Virus record (IMG/VR): IMGVR_UViG_2657244961_000008
Span: 1-43,067 of that record
Origin: a virus
Taxonomy: Duplodnaviria; Heunggongvirae; Uroviricota; Caudoviricetes
Strand: one strand, 5' to 3'
Length of the DNA: 43,067 nucleotides
The notes under the pieces are model-generated. The model had not been told where the DNA came from. It ran no database searches and was given only the letters and a program-made list of their open reading frames with translations. Below, one piece after another: positions 28,677 to 34,854 of this stretch (its first letter is position 1; each line of letters begins with the position of its first letter). Made by a program: the position numbers and the translations under genes.

Positions 28677-29498
28677 CTATCGCGTTACCCTCTTTAACTG
28701 CCGCTCCGCCCATGCCTCCTCAATGTCAAACCGAACCACCAGCGTATCGTAAAAACGCTTCACTGATTTTTTCCACGTATCAAGAGTAATAGCGCTCGTC
28801 ACTTTGCATATGGCATTAAACGCCTCTGTTGACGGCAATCTTTCATAGCCACGACCACCACAACGCTGGCAGTCTCTGATAACAGGCATACCACGTTTTA
28901 CCGACTCCTCACGATGAATGGCGACCCCACGCCCACGGCAATCCTTACAGGCGGTGGAGACCTCCCCCTTCCCTTTACATTCAGGACAGGAGACTTTCAC
29001 CACCTCCCGGACTCTTTTCCATTCTTCCCAGTAAGACGGATACACACCTTTCGTACACTTTGCCCATACCGGCGGCTTACCATCCGGATACTGGACCTTG
29101 TTTGTAAAAACTACGCTTTCAATAAATTTTTCCCCATAGCAACAAGGGCACTGCTTTTTACTCGCTGCGCTGCGGGCATAATCCTCAAAAGCATACGAAG
29201 CCATAATGCGCATCACTAACGGTTTTATTTCTGCCGGAAGTTTTCTCAACGCCGCCACACGATCGCACCGACTGAGTGCATAATCTGCCAGTAATTCTGT
29301 TGCCCGCGCCCTGTCATTCATACTGATGCCCATTTTCCCCAGGAACGCAGAAAACCCCATCTCAGCCCGATTCTGTGTCATGCCCTGCGCGGCCATCACA
29401 TCAGTGATACTCAGCGCATCTTTTGACGTTGAGGCCGATGCATCGGTCAGGCCAGGGGATTTTGGGGAGTAGTATTTCGGTAAATCTTCCAGTTTCAT
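28677..29498 (-). CDS. Q: late-gene antitermination protein Q
   Basis: 273 aa with several CxxC zinc-binding motifs. Follows RusA and is followed by the pR'/tR' unit. Confidence 0.8.
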   Translation of the reverse strand: MKLEDLPKYYSPKSPGLTDASASTSKDALSITDVMAAQGMTQNRAEMGFSAFLGKMGISMNDRARATELLADYALSRCDRVAALRKLPAEIKPLVMRIMASYAFEDYARSAASKKQCPCCYGEKFIESVVFTNKVQYPDGKPPVWAKCTKGVYPSYWEEWKRVREVVKVSCPECKGKGEVSTACKDCRGRGVAIHREESVKRGMPVIRDCQRCGGRGYERLPSTEAFNAICKVTSAITLDTWKKSVKRFYDTLVVRFDIEEAWAERQLKRVTR

Positions 29499-29869
29499 TT
29501 TTTGACCTGCTCTTCATGCATTATGGGGTAAATCTTCACCCCCAGACGTCCACCAGATACTGGCTGACCACGAACGATATTGATTTCATCAAACTGCTCA
29601 TCGTCCATTAACACTCCCGCATGCGTCAGCGCATCCAGCGGTGCTTTCAGGATATTGTCCAGGTCGCGACGACGCTTATCCGGTGGCTCTGCAATCACCT
29701 TTATCGCCAGCCTTCCGGACAGGCTTAATTTCAGCCGCTGCTGGCGAACAATAAGCGCCACAGCCCGGCGATAACGCTTTCCCTCCTCCGAGATAAAATA
29801 TGTGCTGCCACGGCGTCGCCAGTAAGTGTTCACCGTCGGCGGGTAAGGTAAAACCAAATCTATGAGCAT
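29495..29869 (-). CDS. rusA: Holliday junction resolvase RusA
   Basis: 124 aa, basic, in the typical nin-region position just upstream of Q (ATGA overlap with Q). Confidence 0.8.
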   Translation of the reverse strand: MLIDLVLPYPPTVNTYWRRRGSTYFISEEGKRYRRAVALIVRQQRLKLSLSGRLAIKVIAEPPDKRRRDLDNILKAPLDALTHAGVLMDDEQFDEINIVRGQPVSGGRLGVKIYPIMHEEQVKK

Positions 29870-29881
29870 CAGTCACCTCTT

Positions 29882-30928
29882 TTACCCAAGCACGCCAGTT
29901 GCAAAGGCGTGATCAAGAAAACGAAAAATTAAATCAACCTGGGAACCATGCTTTTCTTCGAACGCCAGCGGATCCACATGAAGTTCGTTGTGATGTTCCC
30001 GGCACAGCGGTAGCGTGAAAATATCGTGGGATTTCGTCCCCATTCCGCCCTGACCATGACCAATCAGGTGATGGGGATCGTCGGCTGGCTTACCACAACA
30101 CGCACACGGCTGTGTCTTTACCCAGCGCGTGTATTTCTCGTTAACCCAGCGGCGACGTTTAGGTCGTTTCATGAAAGATTCCGGAGACTCCGGATCAACG
30201 GCAATGCTGACCACCGTCTTTTCCTGTGGCGGGTTTTGCTGGTGGGCGTGAGGCAGCGGCGCAAGATTTTTTGTGCGCTGCTTCAGTATGCTGGTGGCGG
30301 TCTGCTCTCCCGGTACGATGTCGCTTTCACGGTACATTGAACGGATTTTTTCCGCACGCAACCCCAGCGAACGACGTAATACCGCTTCCGGTAGCGCGTC
30401 CGCCACCTGATTGCGGACTGCCCACCAGGATAATTCAGCCAGAGATAATTCACGCTCCTGCGTACCGCTTACTGCGTGACCGATGACGTCAATCATCCAT
30501 GCTGCCAGGTTTTGTTGAGCCAGATGTTCCAGTGATTCGGAGGTCTGGTCACGCAGCTGGTTGTCGCAGTGCCAGCACAACACCATCGCGCCGGTACCGT
30601 AACGATGTATGACGGTTTCACTGTGATGGTAGTCACCATGAGGCCACTGGCAGGATTTGACATGACGCAGTAGCCAGTCAGACAGTGCACCAGCGCCGCC
30701 GGCAGCACGAATCACCCGCTCATCGCTGAAAAATGGCAGCAGAGATTTGTCTTCCGCCAGCGGCTGGCGAACGGCAGGAACGACCCCGGACGGCAGACCG
30801 CGCATGCTTTTTGGTTCCGGCTCGACCAGTACACGCCCCTGCATAAACAAAGGCATCGCATCAGGACCGGGCCTGAAAAGTACAATCCCCAGACGGTGAG
30901 CAATTTCAGGAGTCACTAATACCCTCAC
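29882..30928 (-). CDS. DUF968-type protein with C-terminal HNH-like zinc-finger motif (YdfU-like)
   Basis: 348 aa. C-terminus CACCGKPADDPHHLIGHG...CREHHNELH. Size and position match Qin YdfU. Confidence 0.7.
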   Translation of the reverse strand: MRVLVTPEIAHRLGIVLFRPGPDAMPLFMQGRVLVEPEPKSMRGLPSGVVPAVRQPLAEDKSLLPFFSDERVIRAAGGAGALSDWLLRHVKSCQWPHGDYHHSETVIHRYGTGAMVLCWHCDNQLRDQTSESLEHLAQQNLAAWMIDVIGHAVSGTQERELSLAELSWWAVRNQVADALPEAVLRRSLGLRAEKIRSMYRESDIVPGEQTATSILKQRTKNLAPLPHAHQQNPPQEKTVVSIAVDPESPESFMKRPKRRRWVNEKYTRWVKTQPCACCGKPADDPHHLIGHGQGGMGTKSHDIFTLPLCREHHNELHVDPLAFEEKHGSQVDLIFRFLDHAFATGVLG

Positions 30929-30929
30929 A

Positions 30930-31202
30930 TTACCTCCAGATGCGTTGCTGGAATGTGCGGGACGGACGCGGCGGGCGTTCGGAATAAGGGAGCCTGACGT
31001 AGATTATCCAGTGACGGTAGTCGAGGCTAAGGGCTTTCTTAAACTCATACCCACGTCTGCGGTAGTTATGAATCAGCCATTCGGCCTGTTCTTCAGTGCA
31101 GGGATCGTGCTGATACCAGTCATATTTGAATGCGTGAGAACACAGCCCGCACCTGCTGGCAAGGTCGGTATCAGAATTGTGATATTTGGTATTGTGCGCC
31201 AT
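30930..31202 (-). CDS. hypothetical protein
   Basis: 90 aa from the ATG at 31202. The longer track ORF (to 31331) would include the hok terminator hairpin. Confidence 0.4.
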   Translation of the reverse strand: MAHNTKYHNSDTDLASRCGLCSHAFKYDWYQHDPCTEEQAEWLIHNYRRRGYEFKKALSLDYRHWIIYVRLPYSERPPRPSRTFQQRIWR

Positions 31203-31274
31203 CGGTTGTCTCTGCTGGCGCAGCAGGTGCCAGTTGTTCAGGCTGGCGTGCGAATTGTAAACCAGAATGCCAGG

Positions 31275-31300
31275 AAAAAACAAAACCCGCCGAAGCGGGT
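31275..31300 (-). terminator. intrinsic terminator downstream of hok
   Basis: Stem ACCCGC-CGAA-GCGGGT (31285..31300) followed on the minus strand by TTTTGTTTTTT. Confidence 0.5.
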
Positions 31301-31369
31301 TACGTGCGGGTGCGTTGAGGATGCCTGACACATCAGAGGTGGCGAGGGATTTCTCCCCCGCCTGGTCTC

Positions 31370-31525
31370 TTACTCCTCAGGTTCGTAAGCTGTGAAGACA
31401 GCGACCTCCGTCTGGCCGGTTCGGATTCGTACCTCGCAGAGGTCTTTCCTCGTTACCAGTGCCGTCACTATGACGGTTAAACAGATGACGATCAGGGCGA
31501 TTAACATCGCCTTTTGCTGCTTCAT
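31370..31525 (-). CDS. hokD: Hok-family type I toxin (HokD/RelF-like)
   Basis: Hand translation gives MKQQKAMLIALIVICLTVIVTALVTRKDLCEVRIRTGQTEVAVFTAYEPEE (51 aa), matching E. coli HokD as recalled. Absent from the ORF track because it is under 60 aa. Confidence 0.85.
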   Translation of the reverse strand: MKQQKAMLIALIVICLTVIVTALVTRKDLCEVRIRTGQTEVAVFTAYEPEE

Positions 31526-31815
31526 AGCCTGCTTCTCCTTGACCTTTCGGTCCGTAAGAGGCTAATCTCTATGTGTCGCATAGATATGGCCTCAGATTAA
31601 TGTTAAGCGTCTTGCAGGACGCGTAATGTTAACTGGGGCTTTTCTCTATCTGCCTTTTGGTGTTCATGCCTGAGACAGATAGCCTCAAGCACCCGCTGCA
31701 ATTCTACTTAACTCTCCTTTTCCCGCAAACCGTTTTTATCCCCAGCGGCAAATCGAATACACCACCAGCGCCGCCGCCATTGCAATTCCTGCCGTTGTAA
31801 ATGCCTCAGGCCAGG

Positions 31816-32331
31816 TCATCGTAAAACATCCTCCACGCTTATCAGTCCATTTCGTTTCAGGTAATGCATCGCCATCTCCGGTAATTTGCAGTCTGGATTA
31901 GCTTTTTTCAGTTGACTGACCAGTCGTTTAACCCACATTGTTAATTCGCCAACCTGATTACTGGATGCTAGTGGATTGTCGGCTTTACCCAGAATGACAG
32001 CACAGCAGGCCTCTTTGAGCACCCAGTCAACAGCGTCTTTCCATGCTCCTGTTTCGGCTGGCGGATTTTCACGCTTTACCTGTTCATAAAAGCGCACGGC
32101 TTTAACCAGTCCTTCTGATATCACCGGGACTGGCGGGGTAGTGAATAATGCCTGAATCTCATAGCTCGGCCTGTCGTTGCAATCCTCTTTTGTCGGTACA
32201 TATTTCCAGTCACCAACCCACATCTTCTCCTGAAAGTCCGTAACGCCTTTTTTCACGTAGCGATATCGCCATGCAACTGGTTTTGCCTGCCCTGCCGTTT
32301 CATGCCCTTCCTGATAATTAATCTCGCTCAT
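31816..32331 (-). CDS. hypothetical phage protein
   Basis: 171 aa with an ATGA overlap to the upstream small ORF. Confidence 0.6.
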   Translation of the reverse strand: MSEINYQEGHETAGQAKPVAWRYRYVKKGVTDFQEKMWVGDWKYVPTKEDCNDRPSYEIQALFTTPPVPVISEGLVKAVRFYEQVKRENPPAETGAWKDAVDWVLKEACCAVILGKADNPLASSNQVGELTMWVKRLVSQLKKANPDCKLPEMAMHYLKRNGLISVEDVLR

Positions 32332-32504
32332 TCATAGCCCCACTCATCACAATATGCTTCGACCGGAGTTTTTCCTGCTTCATAGTCATCACGCCATGCT
32401 TCAGCATCGGCGGCACTTCCACCGCGTAACTCTGCATAGTCCATTAACAGTTCATGCCATTCTTCAAAACTGGCGTTATATTTAGTTGAACCAAAATCAG
32501 CCAT
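32328..32504 (-). CDS. small acidic hypothetical protein
   Basis: 58 aa (MADFGSTKYNASFEEWHELL...), found by hand translation. Overlaps both neighbouring genes. Confidence 0.4.
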   Translation of the reverse strand: MADFGSTKYNASFEEWHELLMDYAELRGGSAADAEAWRDDYEAGKTPVEAYCDEWGYE

Positions 32505-32679
32505 TTTGTTCTTCCTCTTCGTCTTTTATTTCGTGATATGAGTAATTGCAGTAGTTAAAGAAAATTTCTTTTGCTTCGTCATGAATTTCATCAGGTGTTG
32601 CGTCATCGTCCACTTCGAATACATCCTCAAAATCTCCACCAGCTATTCCAGTTTCAATAATTACTTTGAACTTTCGCAT
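32497..32679 (-). CDS. small acidic hypothetical protein
   Basis: 60 aa with a very acidic C-terminus. Confidence 0.45.
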   Translation of the reverse strand: MRKFKVIIETGIAGGDFEDVFEVDDDATPDEIHDEAKEIFFNYCNYSYHEIKDEEEEQNG

Positions 32680-32774
32680 TTCACTACCGCCCTTTCGGGT
32701 GGCCTCCTGCTGTTCTGAGGGTGTAGAAATCCCTCCGGTTAAGGATTAAATTTTATTTACAGTGATAAATTTAT

Positions 32775-33374
32775 TTATTCTGGAGCGCGAAGCTGTTCTA
32801 CACAATGCAGCAGCGCATCCATCACTTCCTTAAGCGTTACAGTATCGGCATCATCCAGTTCTGCAACTTTTGCATGCCTGACAAACGCCGCGCGAAGCTC
32901 GTTAAACGCCACCGCCTGTATATCAACCAGGAAAGCGTCAGTAGCTGGCGTTTCAGGCTTGAATCCATTTGCATCGCGTGGGCTGATGTCATCGCTTGTA
33001 TAAATAAAGCAATCATCCTTAATGAATTTATTTAACCCCACATTCTCCACTGCCAGCGTCGCAAAATTAGCTTCCAGTTCTGCAATGCGTTTGCTTTGGG
33101 CTTCCCGTTCATCCAGCAGCGCCTGCACTACTTCAGGGTTGAAAGCTGCGATATAACGAGCGTTGTTCTCTGCGTTTTTCTGTCCGTCGAATCCAGGCCA
33201 GTCGACAATATCTCCGTGATGATTATCTCCTGGCGTGTGCACGGCGTACGTGCCGTATTTGCCCGGCGAAATAAATGCGACCCATTCGCCTTGTGTTGCC
33301 TGTTTTGCTATCTCACGTAGCGCCTGATAATTAATTTTTCTCACTGGTTGCCTCCTGGCAAAGCTGGGCGACAA
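32775..33374 (-). CDS. hypothetical protein, possibly Ead/Ea22-like
   Basis: 199 aa with a coiled-coil centre. The family assignment is from memory of the motif only. Confidence 0.5.
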
Positions 33375-34056
33375 TATCGCGATATTTATTCAGCTCCCGC
33401 AGCGCGGCACAGACTCGCTCCCATTTCCTGATATCACTTTTCGCCCTGCGCAGCGCCAGGTTTGCCCTGCGAAGGGACGGAAAAATCAGCTCATCTGCTT
33501 GCGTTTCGGTAAACGATGGCAACGGCTGCACAATGTCCGCCACAGTTTCTGTTTTAATATCTTCCTGTGTTGCAGCTTCCTGTACTGGTAACGCAACACA
33601 TGCAGGCTGAGGAAAGGCTTTACCATCAGTTTCCGCTACCGATGCCGCTTTCGGCTCTGCTGGTAAATTCTCGCCCGGCATGCAGTAACGAAATTTACCG
33701 TTCTGATTAACACGAATCAGACGACCTTTGCTGATTGCCATTGCCAGCGTTGAAGCCACTTTGCGGGATGTTGTACCGAACAGCGTAGCCAGTTCATCCG
33801 CCGTTTGTGGTCCGCGTTGTTCAATCGTCGCGGTTAAATCGCACTCTGAGATTTTCGCTACTGTCGCCGTGGTGGTTTCTTCCGGCTGTTCTTCTGGCGC
33901 TGGCTGTTCCTGCTGAACGTTGTTATCAGCCACACGCCAGGTGTACGCGCTTTTATCAACAAAACCAGCCTTTTTCAGTTCCCACAGCTCGTTCAGTACT
34001 TCTTCACGACTGATATCAAGTCGCGCAGCCAGCTCTACCGACGTGGCTTTTCCCAT
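33331..34056 (-). CDS. hypothetical phage protein with N-terminal winged-helix-like region
   Basis: 241 aa immediately downstream of the DnaC-like gene. Confidence 0.6.
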
Positions 34057-34107: not shown

Positions 34108-34854
34108 TTACTTTTCAATACCTGGCTGACCAACATTCGGGCGCCAGCTCTCCCAGTTAAAATTCACCCAGCGACCACCGTTCATGGTCATGCGGTCCAT
34201 CACGCGTTCGCCAAGCAGCGTATTCATCGCTGCGTGGTTCAGGTTTGTCAGCATCCCGACGCTGTGCATCGAGGCCGTTCTGCGATCGACTATCTGGTTC
34301 AGTGTGACCTGTTCGTTACGCGTATCCCGCTGCATACCGATTTCATCCAGGATAAGCAGGTCAACTTCACACAACCCCTGCAAAAATTTTTCGCCTGAGT
34401 TTTTGTTGTCGTAGTTGCCGTGTAACGCCAGCATCACATCCGCCACCGTCACCACAATCACGCTGCGACCTTTCGCCAGAAGATGGTTGCCAATGGCTGC
34501 TGCCAGATGATTCTTTCCGGTACCCGGCTTACCGCTGAACACAAAATTCGTGCACCCGGTTATCAGTTCGCCTGCAATGGACTTCGCCTGGCTGAGTGCA
34601 TGACGCTGTCCGTCGTTCTGCACCTGGTAATTCGCAAACGAACATTTCTGGTGCAACGGCTGGATACCGGAACGATTCAGGAATTTTTCCACCCGTAACT
34701 GGCGATTCTGGCGGTTGATCTCCTCGCTACGTTTTCGCCCTTCTGCAAGCTGCCACTCCCGCCACTCGTCCACTGTCCGGTACGCCGCAGTTACATGCTG
34801 CGGGGCCAGCTTACGGATACGCTCAAGAACACCATCTGCCGCAATATTTTTCAT
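34108..34854 (-). CDS. DnaC-like replication helicase loader (IstB-like AAA+ ATPase)
   Basis: 248 aa with Walker A GKPGTGKN and Walker B LLILDEIG. Confidence 0.85.
   Translation of the reverse strand: MKNIAADGVLERIRKLAPQHVTAAYRTVDEWREWQLAEGRKRSEEINRQNRQLRVEKFLNRSGIQPLHQKCSFANYQVQNDGQRHALSQAKSIAGELITGCTNFVFSGKPGTGKNHLAAAIGNHLLAKGRSVIVVTVADVMLALHGNYDNKNSGEKFLQGLCEVDLLILDEIGMQRDTRNEQVTLNQIVDRRTASMHSVGMLTNLNHAAMNTLLGERVMDRMTMNGGRWVNFNWESWRPNVGQPGIEK

Follow-up and report, generated by a model that had tools for sequence, protein, structure and literature searches.

Two small, acidic and overlapping genes conserved in the nin-like region of an Escherichia coli lambdoid prophage

Are two very small, overlapping open reading frames (ORFs) of a lambdoid prophage genuine genes, do they make up one functional unit or two, and what could their products do? 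These questions are raised by a locus on the minus strand of the IMG/VR virus record IMGVR_UViG_2657244961_000008, whose whole stretch of 43,067 nucleotides (nt) was analysed and is referred to here as the window. The window is a Rac/Qin-like lambdoid prophage of Escherichia coli, and the two frames, ORF1 of 60 amino acids (aa) and ORF2 of 58 aa, are directly followed in it by a third and longer one, ORF3. The reading that we favour, in which we place about an even degree of confidence, is that ORF1 and ORF2 are two separate and genuine small acidic accessory genes, expressed as coupled early cistrons, and that each product would be a stoichiometric protein binder whose likeliest target belongs to the host or to its defences. 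The two frames, their junctions and the neighbour that shares the second junction are the following.

32679..32497, minus strand: ORF1, 60 aa, MRKFKVIIETGIAGGDFEDVFEVDDDATPDEIHDEAKEIFFNYCNYSYHEIKDEEEEQNG, MRKFKVII...KDEEEEQNG
32504..32328, minus strand: ORF2, 58 aa, MADFGSTKYNASFEEWHELLMDYAELRGGSAADAEAWRDDYEAGKTPVEAYCDEWGYE, MADFGSTKYN...CDEWGYE
32497..32504, minus strand: overlap of the ORF1 stop and the ORF2 start, ATGGCTGA, 8 nt, with ORF2 in the +1 frame
32517..32513, minus strand: GAGGA, Shine-Dalgarno (SD) sequence for ORF2, 8 nt 5' of its ATG and within the GAA GAG GAA GAA (EEEE) codons of ORF1
32328..32331, minus strand: overlap of the ORF2 stop and the ORF3 start, ATGA, 4 nt
32331..31816, minus strand: ORF3, hypothetical protein of 171 aa, PHROG 660, third cistron of the overlapping string

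An earlier note on this DNA, made from the letters alone, had described two very small and highly acidic frames, one of 60 aa with an EEEEQNG tail and one of 58 aa, overlapping each other by 8 nt and the next gene by 4 nt, and this description is accurate in all these respects. At the first junction the codons CAA AAT GGC TGA of ORF1 run over ATG GCT GA of ORF2, and the second junction reads GAATGAGC. ORF1 contains 19 aspartate and glutamate residues for 5 lysine and arginine residues (net charge -14, isoelectric point 4.06) and ORF2 15 for 4 (net charge -11, isoelectric point 4.08), both isoelectric points falling under the 5th percentile (4.5) of the 155 ORFs of at least 50 aa present in the window. 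With 155 such frames at hand, length alone is no evidence of a gene.

The coding status of the two frames was evaluated on their relatives. Through ORF1, 80 loci were fetched from IMG/VR; with other loci added, the set that covers both genes comprises 85 sequences, of which 59 are distinct. Pairwise Nei-Gojobori estimates of the ratio of nonsynonymous to synonymous polymorphism (pN/pS) reached only 0.076 for ORF1 when read as claimed, where the two alternative frames on that strand gave 5.1 and 1.8; the corresponding values for ORF2 are 0.097, against 1.6 and 0.74. Variable sites at codon positions 1, 2 and 3 numbered 7, 9 and 29 in ORF1 and 15, 14 and 28 in ORF2, and in the protein alignments the substitutions remain conservative as far as Enterobacter, Salmonella, Providencia, Klebsiella and the Vi01-like phages. 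Because this conservation is specific to the claimed frames, ORF1 and ORF2 are more than chance frames; to judge from these substitution patterns, both are under strong purifying selection and are genuine protein-coding genes. Intact copies were found in 55/59 of the distinct sequences for ORF1 and in 53/59 for ORF2, the others including a Shigella copy in which both genes are interrupted by stops, isolated alleles with a nonsense or frameshift mutation, and cases that are artefacts of recombination or of contig ends. The earlier note had proposed the conservation of both frames in related prophages as a check on the two genes, and frame disruptions in relatives as the contrary sign. The outcome is clearly positive on the first point (pN/pS, third-position bias, 85 loci), and the disruptions come down to sporadic pseudogenised copies. 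Prophage gene decay is illustrated by the Shigella flexneri copy (locus L004), with its stops in ORF1 and ORF2, and by P0132, a frameshifted 46-aa allele of ORF1 found on 107 contigs and fixed in one lineage. Sporadic decay is expected of prophage genes, and such disruptions therefore do not count against gene status.

Both genes are already catalogued and neither is new; they belong to families of unassigned function and are extremely common in E. coli. The RefSeq annotation of a prophage with 98.6% identity gives WP_001224685.1, “DUF7167 family protein”, for ORF1 and WP_000753054.1, “hypothetical protein”, for ORF2. The statement that ORF2 is found only by hand translation does not hold, as RefSeq/PGAP already has it under the latter accession. 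Contigs with the exact protein number ~998 for ORF1 and 268 for ORF2, and the names given to these proteins are hypothetical, DUF7167 or “prophage protein”. ORF1 passes the Pfam threshold of DUF7167 (PF23768) with 54.9 bits for a cut-off of 24.4, its residues 2-53 corresponding to profile positions 1-60 of 60, and it matches phrog_1997 at E=8e-31. ORF2 matches no Pfam or NCBIfam family; it matches phrog_519 at E=1.3e-22, but over profile positions 76-137 of 143 only. The motif of PHROG 519, F.EW..L...A...G.s.aD..AWreDYdaGkTP.eAw.dEWG, was confirmed in 20 diverse members, and an exhaustive profile search with ORF2 returned 78 cluster representatives, mostly stand-alone proteins of ~50-65 aa, together with truncated fragments of 31-48 aa and a few longer proteins. 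The literature that was searched holds no mention of DUF7167, WP_001224685.1 or WP_000753054.1.

The frequency of the locus in E. coli can be appreciated from the DNA at 32250..32760, which matches 2368 of 5426 complete genomes of this species; in 1731 of them the match extends over 80% or more of this segment, and the identity is mostly 90-95%. A scan of genome contigs with one genome per species gave 6 loci. One of these is a 3 kb contig (JAIHTM010000290.1, locus L003) that carries the two genes in a metagenome-assembled genome (MAG) labelled Collinsella sp., a member of the Actinobacteria, with an ORF2 protein 97% identical to the query; this copy most likely stems from E. coli prophage DNA that contaminated the bin.

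The minus strand of the window carries, in order, the YdaT-family, O-like, DnaC-like, DUF1627 and Ead/Ea22-like genes, ORF1, ORF2, ORF3, sok/hok, and the DUF968, RusA and antiterminator Q genes. The label of nin-like region previously given to the locus is therefore right, ORF1 and ORF2 sitting in the replaceable stretch that leads from the replication genes to antiterminator Q. No sigma-70-like promoter or intrinsic terminator consensus was found between the genes on the coding strand, and ORF1 and ORF2 would therefore be internal cistrons of the long rightward operon running from cro through the replication genes to Q. The translational coupling that the overlaps had suggested is supported by the architecture of the junctions and by their conservation: the ATGGCTGA junction is identical in 84 of the 85 related loci, the ATGA junction is kept in nearly all relatives, even where the downstream gene differs, and GAGGA stands 8 nt upstream of the ORF2 start, all the junction variants retaining a purine-rich GAGGAAG or GGAGGAAG. 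A stop/start overlap, an SD sequence inside the upstream coding sequence and conservation of the arrangement, which together characterise coupled cistrons, are all present. The overlap itself is not essential: in a 75%-identical relative (L089) the TGA of ORF1 and the ATG of ORF2 abut, and in phage pPE4 the ORF1 stop comes earlier. Moreover, DUF7167 proteins without a downstream ORF2 also end in GEDE, GDDE or DEEG, and because the acidic tail persists in them, it is a feature of the protein and not merely a by-product of the SD sequence of ORF2.

In the expression scheme that we propose, prophage induction or infection would be followed by transcription of the rightward delayed-early operon, with ORF1 and ORF2 among its internal cistrons. 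Initiation of ORF1 would take place from a GGAGG brought to ~7 nt from the AUG by a stable hairpin with a GNRA loop, and that of ORF2 at the GAGGA embedded in the Glu codons of ORF1, by ribosomes terminating or unfolding the messenger 8 nt away. ORF3 would in turn be initiated by termination-reinitiation at ATGA. The ORF1 step relies on a leader with the following elements.

32680..32774, minus strand: conserved 95-nt leader, from the Ead/Ea22 stop to the ORF1 start
32707..32703, minus strand: GGAGG, 23 nt from the AUG (32679)
32702..32687, minus strand: 16-nt hairpin CCRCCC-GNRA-GGGYGG
32735..32731 pairing with 32721..32717, minus strand: weaker upstream hairpin

Over 35 distinct leaders, the consensus reads ...GGAGG-CCRCCC-GNRA-GGGYGG-UARUKAA-AUG, with the loops GAAA, GGCA and GGAA, all of the GNRA type, and both hairpins are part of the predicted minimum free energy fold. 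The GGAGG is more than 15 nt from the AUG and the predicted 16-nt hairpin would restore an effective spacing of 7 nt, inside the 5-11 nt range expected of a split ribosome-binding site. It is thus possible, by analogy, that the ORF1 leader is a split ribosome-binding site like those of the T4 genes 38 and 25, where hairpins shorten the SD-AUG distance from 22 to 5 nt in gene 38 and from 27 to 11 nt in gene 25 (PMC3014915). The 3' arm of the hairpin, GGGCGGU, is itself SD-like, so that the hairpin could mask an SD sequence instead. One pair of the stem changes from G-C to A-U in 2 distinct sequences, and A.C intermediates occur in 7. A candidate compensatory change in the upstream hairpin proved on checking to be a U.U mismatch and was discarded. 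The leader pattern occurs once in the window, and no Rfam family was detected for the region or the leader at E values up to 1. In an E. coli O157:H7 prophage (L103, 1500-1583), the same leader precedes, up to the start codon, an unrelated 65-aa gene, which makes it a portable cassette.

Whether the two genes are one unit or two depends on the evolutionary distance considered. In the lambdoid phages of E. coli, the pair and its 5' leader travel as one mosaic module. ORF2 lies directly downstream in every locus recovered through ORF1 whose homology block covers both genes; these blocks typically start at the Ead/Ea22 stop and run through ORF1 and ORF2 or beyond, and the BLAST blocks of several loci end at reference position 473, which is the end of ORF2. 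Some of the related prophages lack the module. In the Shiga toxin (Stx) phage ArgO145 (L094, 5001-5352), the same pair with the same leader is found in the early-left, exo-xis-type region, between two Ead/Ea22-like genes, and the module has therefore changed places between the leftward and the rightward early operon. The 75%-identical relative also keeps the pair, which there follows a DUF551 gene.

Beyond these phages the two families are found apart. ORF2 homologues without a DUF7167 neighbour occur in Providencia, in Klebsiella grimontii, in a Thiotrichaceae MAG, in Serratia loci and in Ackermannviridae. Phage records matching ORF2 amount to 198, of which 174 do so at less than 60% identity; among these lower-identity matches, the listed ones belong for the most part to virulent Ackermannviridae of the Vi01-like kind, in which the gene (Vi01_151c in Vi01) comes right after the major capsid gene. 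The homologues of Vi01 (L093, 2501-2695) and D5lw (L092, 2474-2668) are 64 aa long and 51-58% identical to ORF2; the name “antitoxin” attached to the D5lw protein is automatic and without support. DUF7167 was found in just 19 phage records, including the Klebsiella phages ST512-KPC3phi13.3 and VLCpiS11a and Enterococcus Herelleviridae, and the gene downstream of it in the Klebsiella and Enterococcus phages is unrelated to ORF2. The proteins of the Enterococcus phage vB_Efa29212_3e (L098, 1501-1671) and of VLCpiS11a (L097, 1501-1671) are 43-48% identical to ORF1, with the same length and the same acidic tail. The presence of DUF7167 in virulent phages of the Gram-positive Enterococcus and in a Klebsiella siphovirus represents an unusually broad host range for a protein of 56-60 aa. 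Nor is the frame of ORF2 relative to ORF1 constant: the two overlap in +1 in the window, in L089 the ATG comes right after the TGA without a change of frame, and in phage pPE4 ORF1 stops three codons earlier. Because each family occurs alone elsewhere and the relative frame varies, the two genes are two cistrons from two independent families, and are neither a split or frameshift-fused protein nor an obligate pair.

The predicted structures are compact. The AlphaFold2 (AF2) model of ORF1 displays the order beta(2-9)-beta(16-23)-alpha(29-39)-beta(46-51), followed by a C-terminal acidic helix or tail (mean predicted local distance difference test score, pLDDT, 79.5), and that of ORF2 a three-helix bundle with helices 13-27, 34-42 and 47-55 (pLDDT 81.4). 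Neither model gave a significant fold match, T7 Gp2 being the one suggestive neighbour, and PDB sequences compared with both family profiles gave nothing under E=0.04. A weak local match of ORF1 residues 10-40, in the DUF7167 profile, to the ribosomal protein uL23 (E=0.042, tg.a.g...vFeV..DAt..EI) is regarded as due to chance. No defence or toxin-antitoxin model of PADLOC, NCBIfam or Pfam matches ORF1, ORF2 or ORF3, and ORF1 and ORF2 matched no characterised inhibitor, defence or anti-defence family in the Pfam, PHROG, NCBIfam, PDB-sequence and PADLOC searches. An identity with the lambda exo-xis ORFs, of which orf60a is also 60 aa long, was rejected: no similarity was found to orf60a, orf63, orf61, ea8.5, ea22 or orf55, the best hit in lambda 29000-32100 by BLASTP and TBLASTN being E=0.09 over 9 residues, and hhalign giving DUF7167 a probability of 0.1% against Orf55.

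The proposal that each protein acts stoichiometrically by binding another protein, most probably a host or host-defence component during early development, relies on the small size, the charge, the high conservation, the compact predicted folds, the absence of signatures of catalysis or of nucleic-acid binding, and the position in a mosaic string of early accessory genes. Such strings commonly hold phage modulators of host physiology and immunity. An enzymatic role, DNA binding or membership of an obligate pair is unlikely for either protein; that they inhibit a host factor, as the earlier note had imagined for small acidic early proteins, is speculative. Several observations weigh against the proposal. 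There is no homology evidence for any target, and the alignments behind the AF2 models are shallow, with 10-14 sequences. The ORF2 homologue of the Ackermannviridae stands beside the major capsid gene, unlike an early host-takeover position, and the occurrence of DUF7167 in phages of both Gram-negative and Gram-positive hosts would require a very conserved target or a role internal to the phage. The capsid-adjacent homologue and the Enterococcus DUF7167 proteins therefore call for caution towards a narrow, E. coli-specific host-takeover story. As for the expression scheme, the window's own copy of the leader has an A.C mismatch in the stem, and the covariation of the two leader hairpins is no better than in shuffled controls.

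Among the other explanations, the one that deserves most attention, although we consider it somewhat unlikely, is that the proteins serve the phage's own programme, by tuning the lysis-lysogeny decision, replication or recombination or by taking part in morphogenesis, and inhibit neither host nor defence. The pair is embedded among Ead/Ea22-like genes, it occupies the exo-xis-type region in ArgO145, the Vi01-like homologue of ORF2 lies just past the major capsid gene, and the exo-xis small proteins Orf60a, Orf63, Orf61 and Ea22 influence lysogenisation and induction (PMC8614690, PMC7093339). The lack of sequence similarity to lambda orf60a, orf63, orf61, ea8.5, ea22 and orf55 speaks against this explanation, as do the dispensability of the module, which is mosaic and confined to part of the related prophages, and the presence of both families in unrelated virulent phages with different life cycles. 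It is still less probable that ORF1 and ORF2 are subunits of a single unit, either a heterodimeric inhibitor or a toxin/antidote-like pair, whose stoichiometry the coupling would set. The constant succession of ORF2 to ORF1 in the lambdoid loci recovered through ORF1, the nearly invariant overlap, the conservation of the pair at 75% identity and its joint relocation between genome regions would fit such a unit; however, each family exists without the other in more distant phages and bacteria, ORF2 being in 198 phage records and ORF1 in 19, the strong acidity of both proteins (net -14 and -11) disfavours a tight electrostatic complex, and no toxin-antitoxin or defence family was matched.

We regard as very improbable that ORF1 is a distant analogue or homologue of T7 Gp2, inhibiting the host RNA polymerase through the beta' jaw. 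The two proteins are similar in size, acidity and beta-beta-alpha-beta order, and hhalign pairs RKFKVIIET...FEV..AT with KKFWATVES...FEVPIYAET in the same structural register; lambda Orf55 was proposed to be Gp2-like on the same kind of evidence (PMC8614690). The profile RNA_pol_inhib of Pfam (PF16857), which detects Gp2 at E=4e-28, nevertheless does not match ORF1 at E values up to 0.1, and the hhalign probability of ORF1/DUF7167 against Gp2 is 0.2% with the single Gp2 sequence and 0.9% profile against profile. R56 and R58 of Gp2, near the third strand, are needed for binding the beta' jaw of RNA polymerase. Together with P59 they are invariant in five Gp2 homologues and have no conserved counterpart in DUF7167, where the position at the end of strand 3 may be K, T, F or E and the acidic tail comes next. 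A temperate phage that relies on the host RNA polymerase is moreover unlikely to carry a strong inhibitor of it. Finally, the notion of chance open frames, or of a single gene frameshifted into a 118-aa protein, can hardly be credited and was rejected. Frames of ~60 aa are indeed common by chance, as the 155 of at least 50 aa in the window testify, and relative to ORF1, ORF2 is read in the +1 frame, the stop being preceded by an SD-like sequence. Frame-specific purifying selection, the varying relative frame (+1 here, in-frame TGA-ATG in L089, earlier stop in pPE4) and the existence of each family alone elsewhere decide against it; in addition, there is no slippery motif, and GAGGA is 12 nt from the stop-proximal codon, too far for +1 shifting of the prfB type.

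As they stand, two catalogued conserved hypothetical genes, present in more than 40% of complete E. coli genomes, have little significance. Their value resides in being cheap candidates for functional screens, as they are short, well conserved, confidently foldable and very widespread, and the ORF1 leader is a neat natural case of what may be a split ribosome-binding site, reused before unrelated genes. A bolder extension, which we consider unlikely, is that DUF7167 and the ORF2 family each constitute a class of small acidic phage inhibitors directed against a target conserved widely among bacteria or against a defence system that is common, the module being a two-gene counter-defence or host-takeover cassette with a portable leader. 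If true, this would explain why the same proteins of 55-65 aa recur in lambdoid phages, which are temperate, as well as in the virulent Ackermannviridae and Guernseyvirinae, to which Enterococcus Herelleviridae are added in the case of DUF7167.

The surroundings of the module in the window comprise the following genes and elements.

34854..34108, minus strand: DnaC-like gene
34056..33331, minus strand: DUF1627 gene
33374..32775, minus strand: Ead/Ea22-like gene
31694..31370, minus strand: sok/hok locus, directly 3' of ORF3
31523-31694, minus strand: sok RNA, Rfam match at 106.7 bits
31370-31525, minus strand: Hok-family ORF of 51 aa, phrog_251 at E=2.8e-33, under the NCBIfam Hok cut-offs
29498..28677, minus strand: antiterminator Q gene
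25421-26629, minus strand: DDE transposase ORF of an IS10-type element
26622-26691, plus strand: RNA-OUT of the IS10-type element
38512-38563, plus strand: DicF antisense small RNA of the leftward operon, 76.7 bits
41-239, minus strand: Rfam “IS009” RNA match at the window start, 198 bits

The cI-like repressor, DicF and the RecE-type exonuclease are encoded on the strand opposite to ORF1 and ORF2. ORF3 is replaceable, mosaic breakpoints falling at or just past the end of ORF2, and it is adjoined downstream by the hok/sok type I toxin-antitoxin locus (31370-31694, minus strand). The IS10-type element occupies 25421-26691, just beyond a DNA methylase gene (27048-28100) and downstream of Q, which suggests an insertion sequence (IS) inserted on the late-gene side of the prophage.

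Compared with known systems, ORF1 is an ordinary full-length member of DUF7167/PHROG 1997, a family without assigned function, from which it does not differ. ORF2 shares with PHROG 519, including the gene Vi01_151c of Salmonella phage Vi01, the ...AD..AWReDYdaGKTP.eAw.dEWG motif and the stand-alone format of ~58-65 aa; the two differ in context, which is the vicinity of the major capsid gene in the Ackermannviridae and the nin-like region here. The likeness of ORF1 to T7 Gp2, the inhibitor of the host RNA polymerase, would be one of predicted shape only. The ORF1 leader resembles the split ribosome-binding sites of the T4 genes 38 and 25 in having a hairpin that fills most of the gap between SD and AUG, an analogy without sequence relation. 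In organisation there is a parallel with the exo-xis proteins of lambda and Stx phages (Orf60a, Orf63, Orf61, Orf55, Ea8.5 and Ea22), whose function is poorly known and whose genes, of ~60 aa, likewise overlap in strings within early operons, near Ead/Ea22 genes. Those strings lie between exo and xis, whereas the module of the window lies in the rightward operon, on the way from the replication genes to Q.

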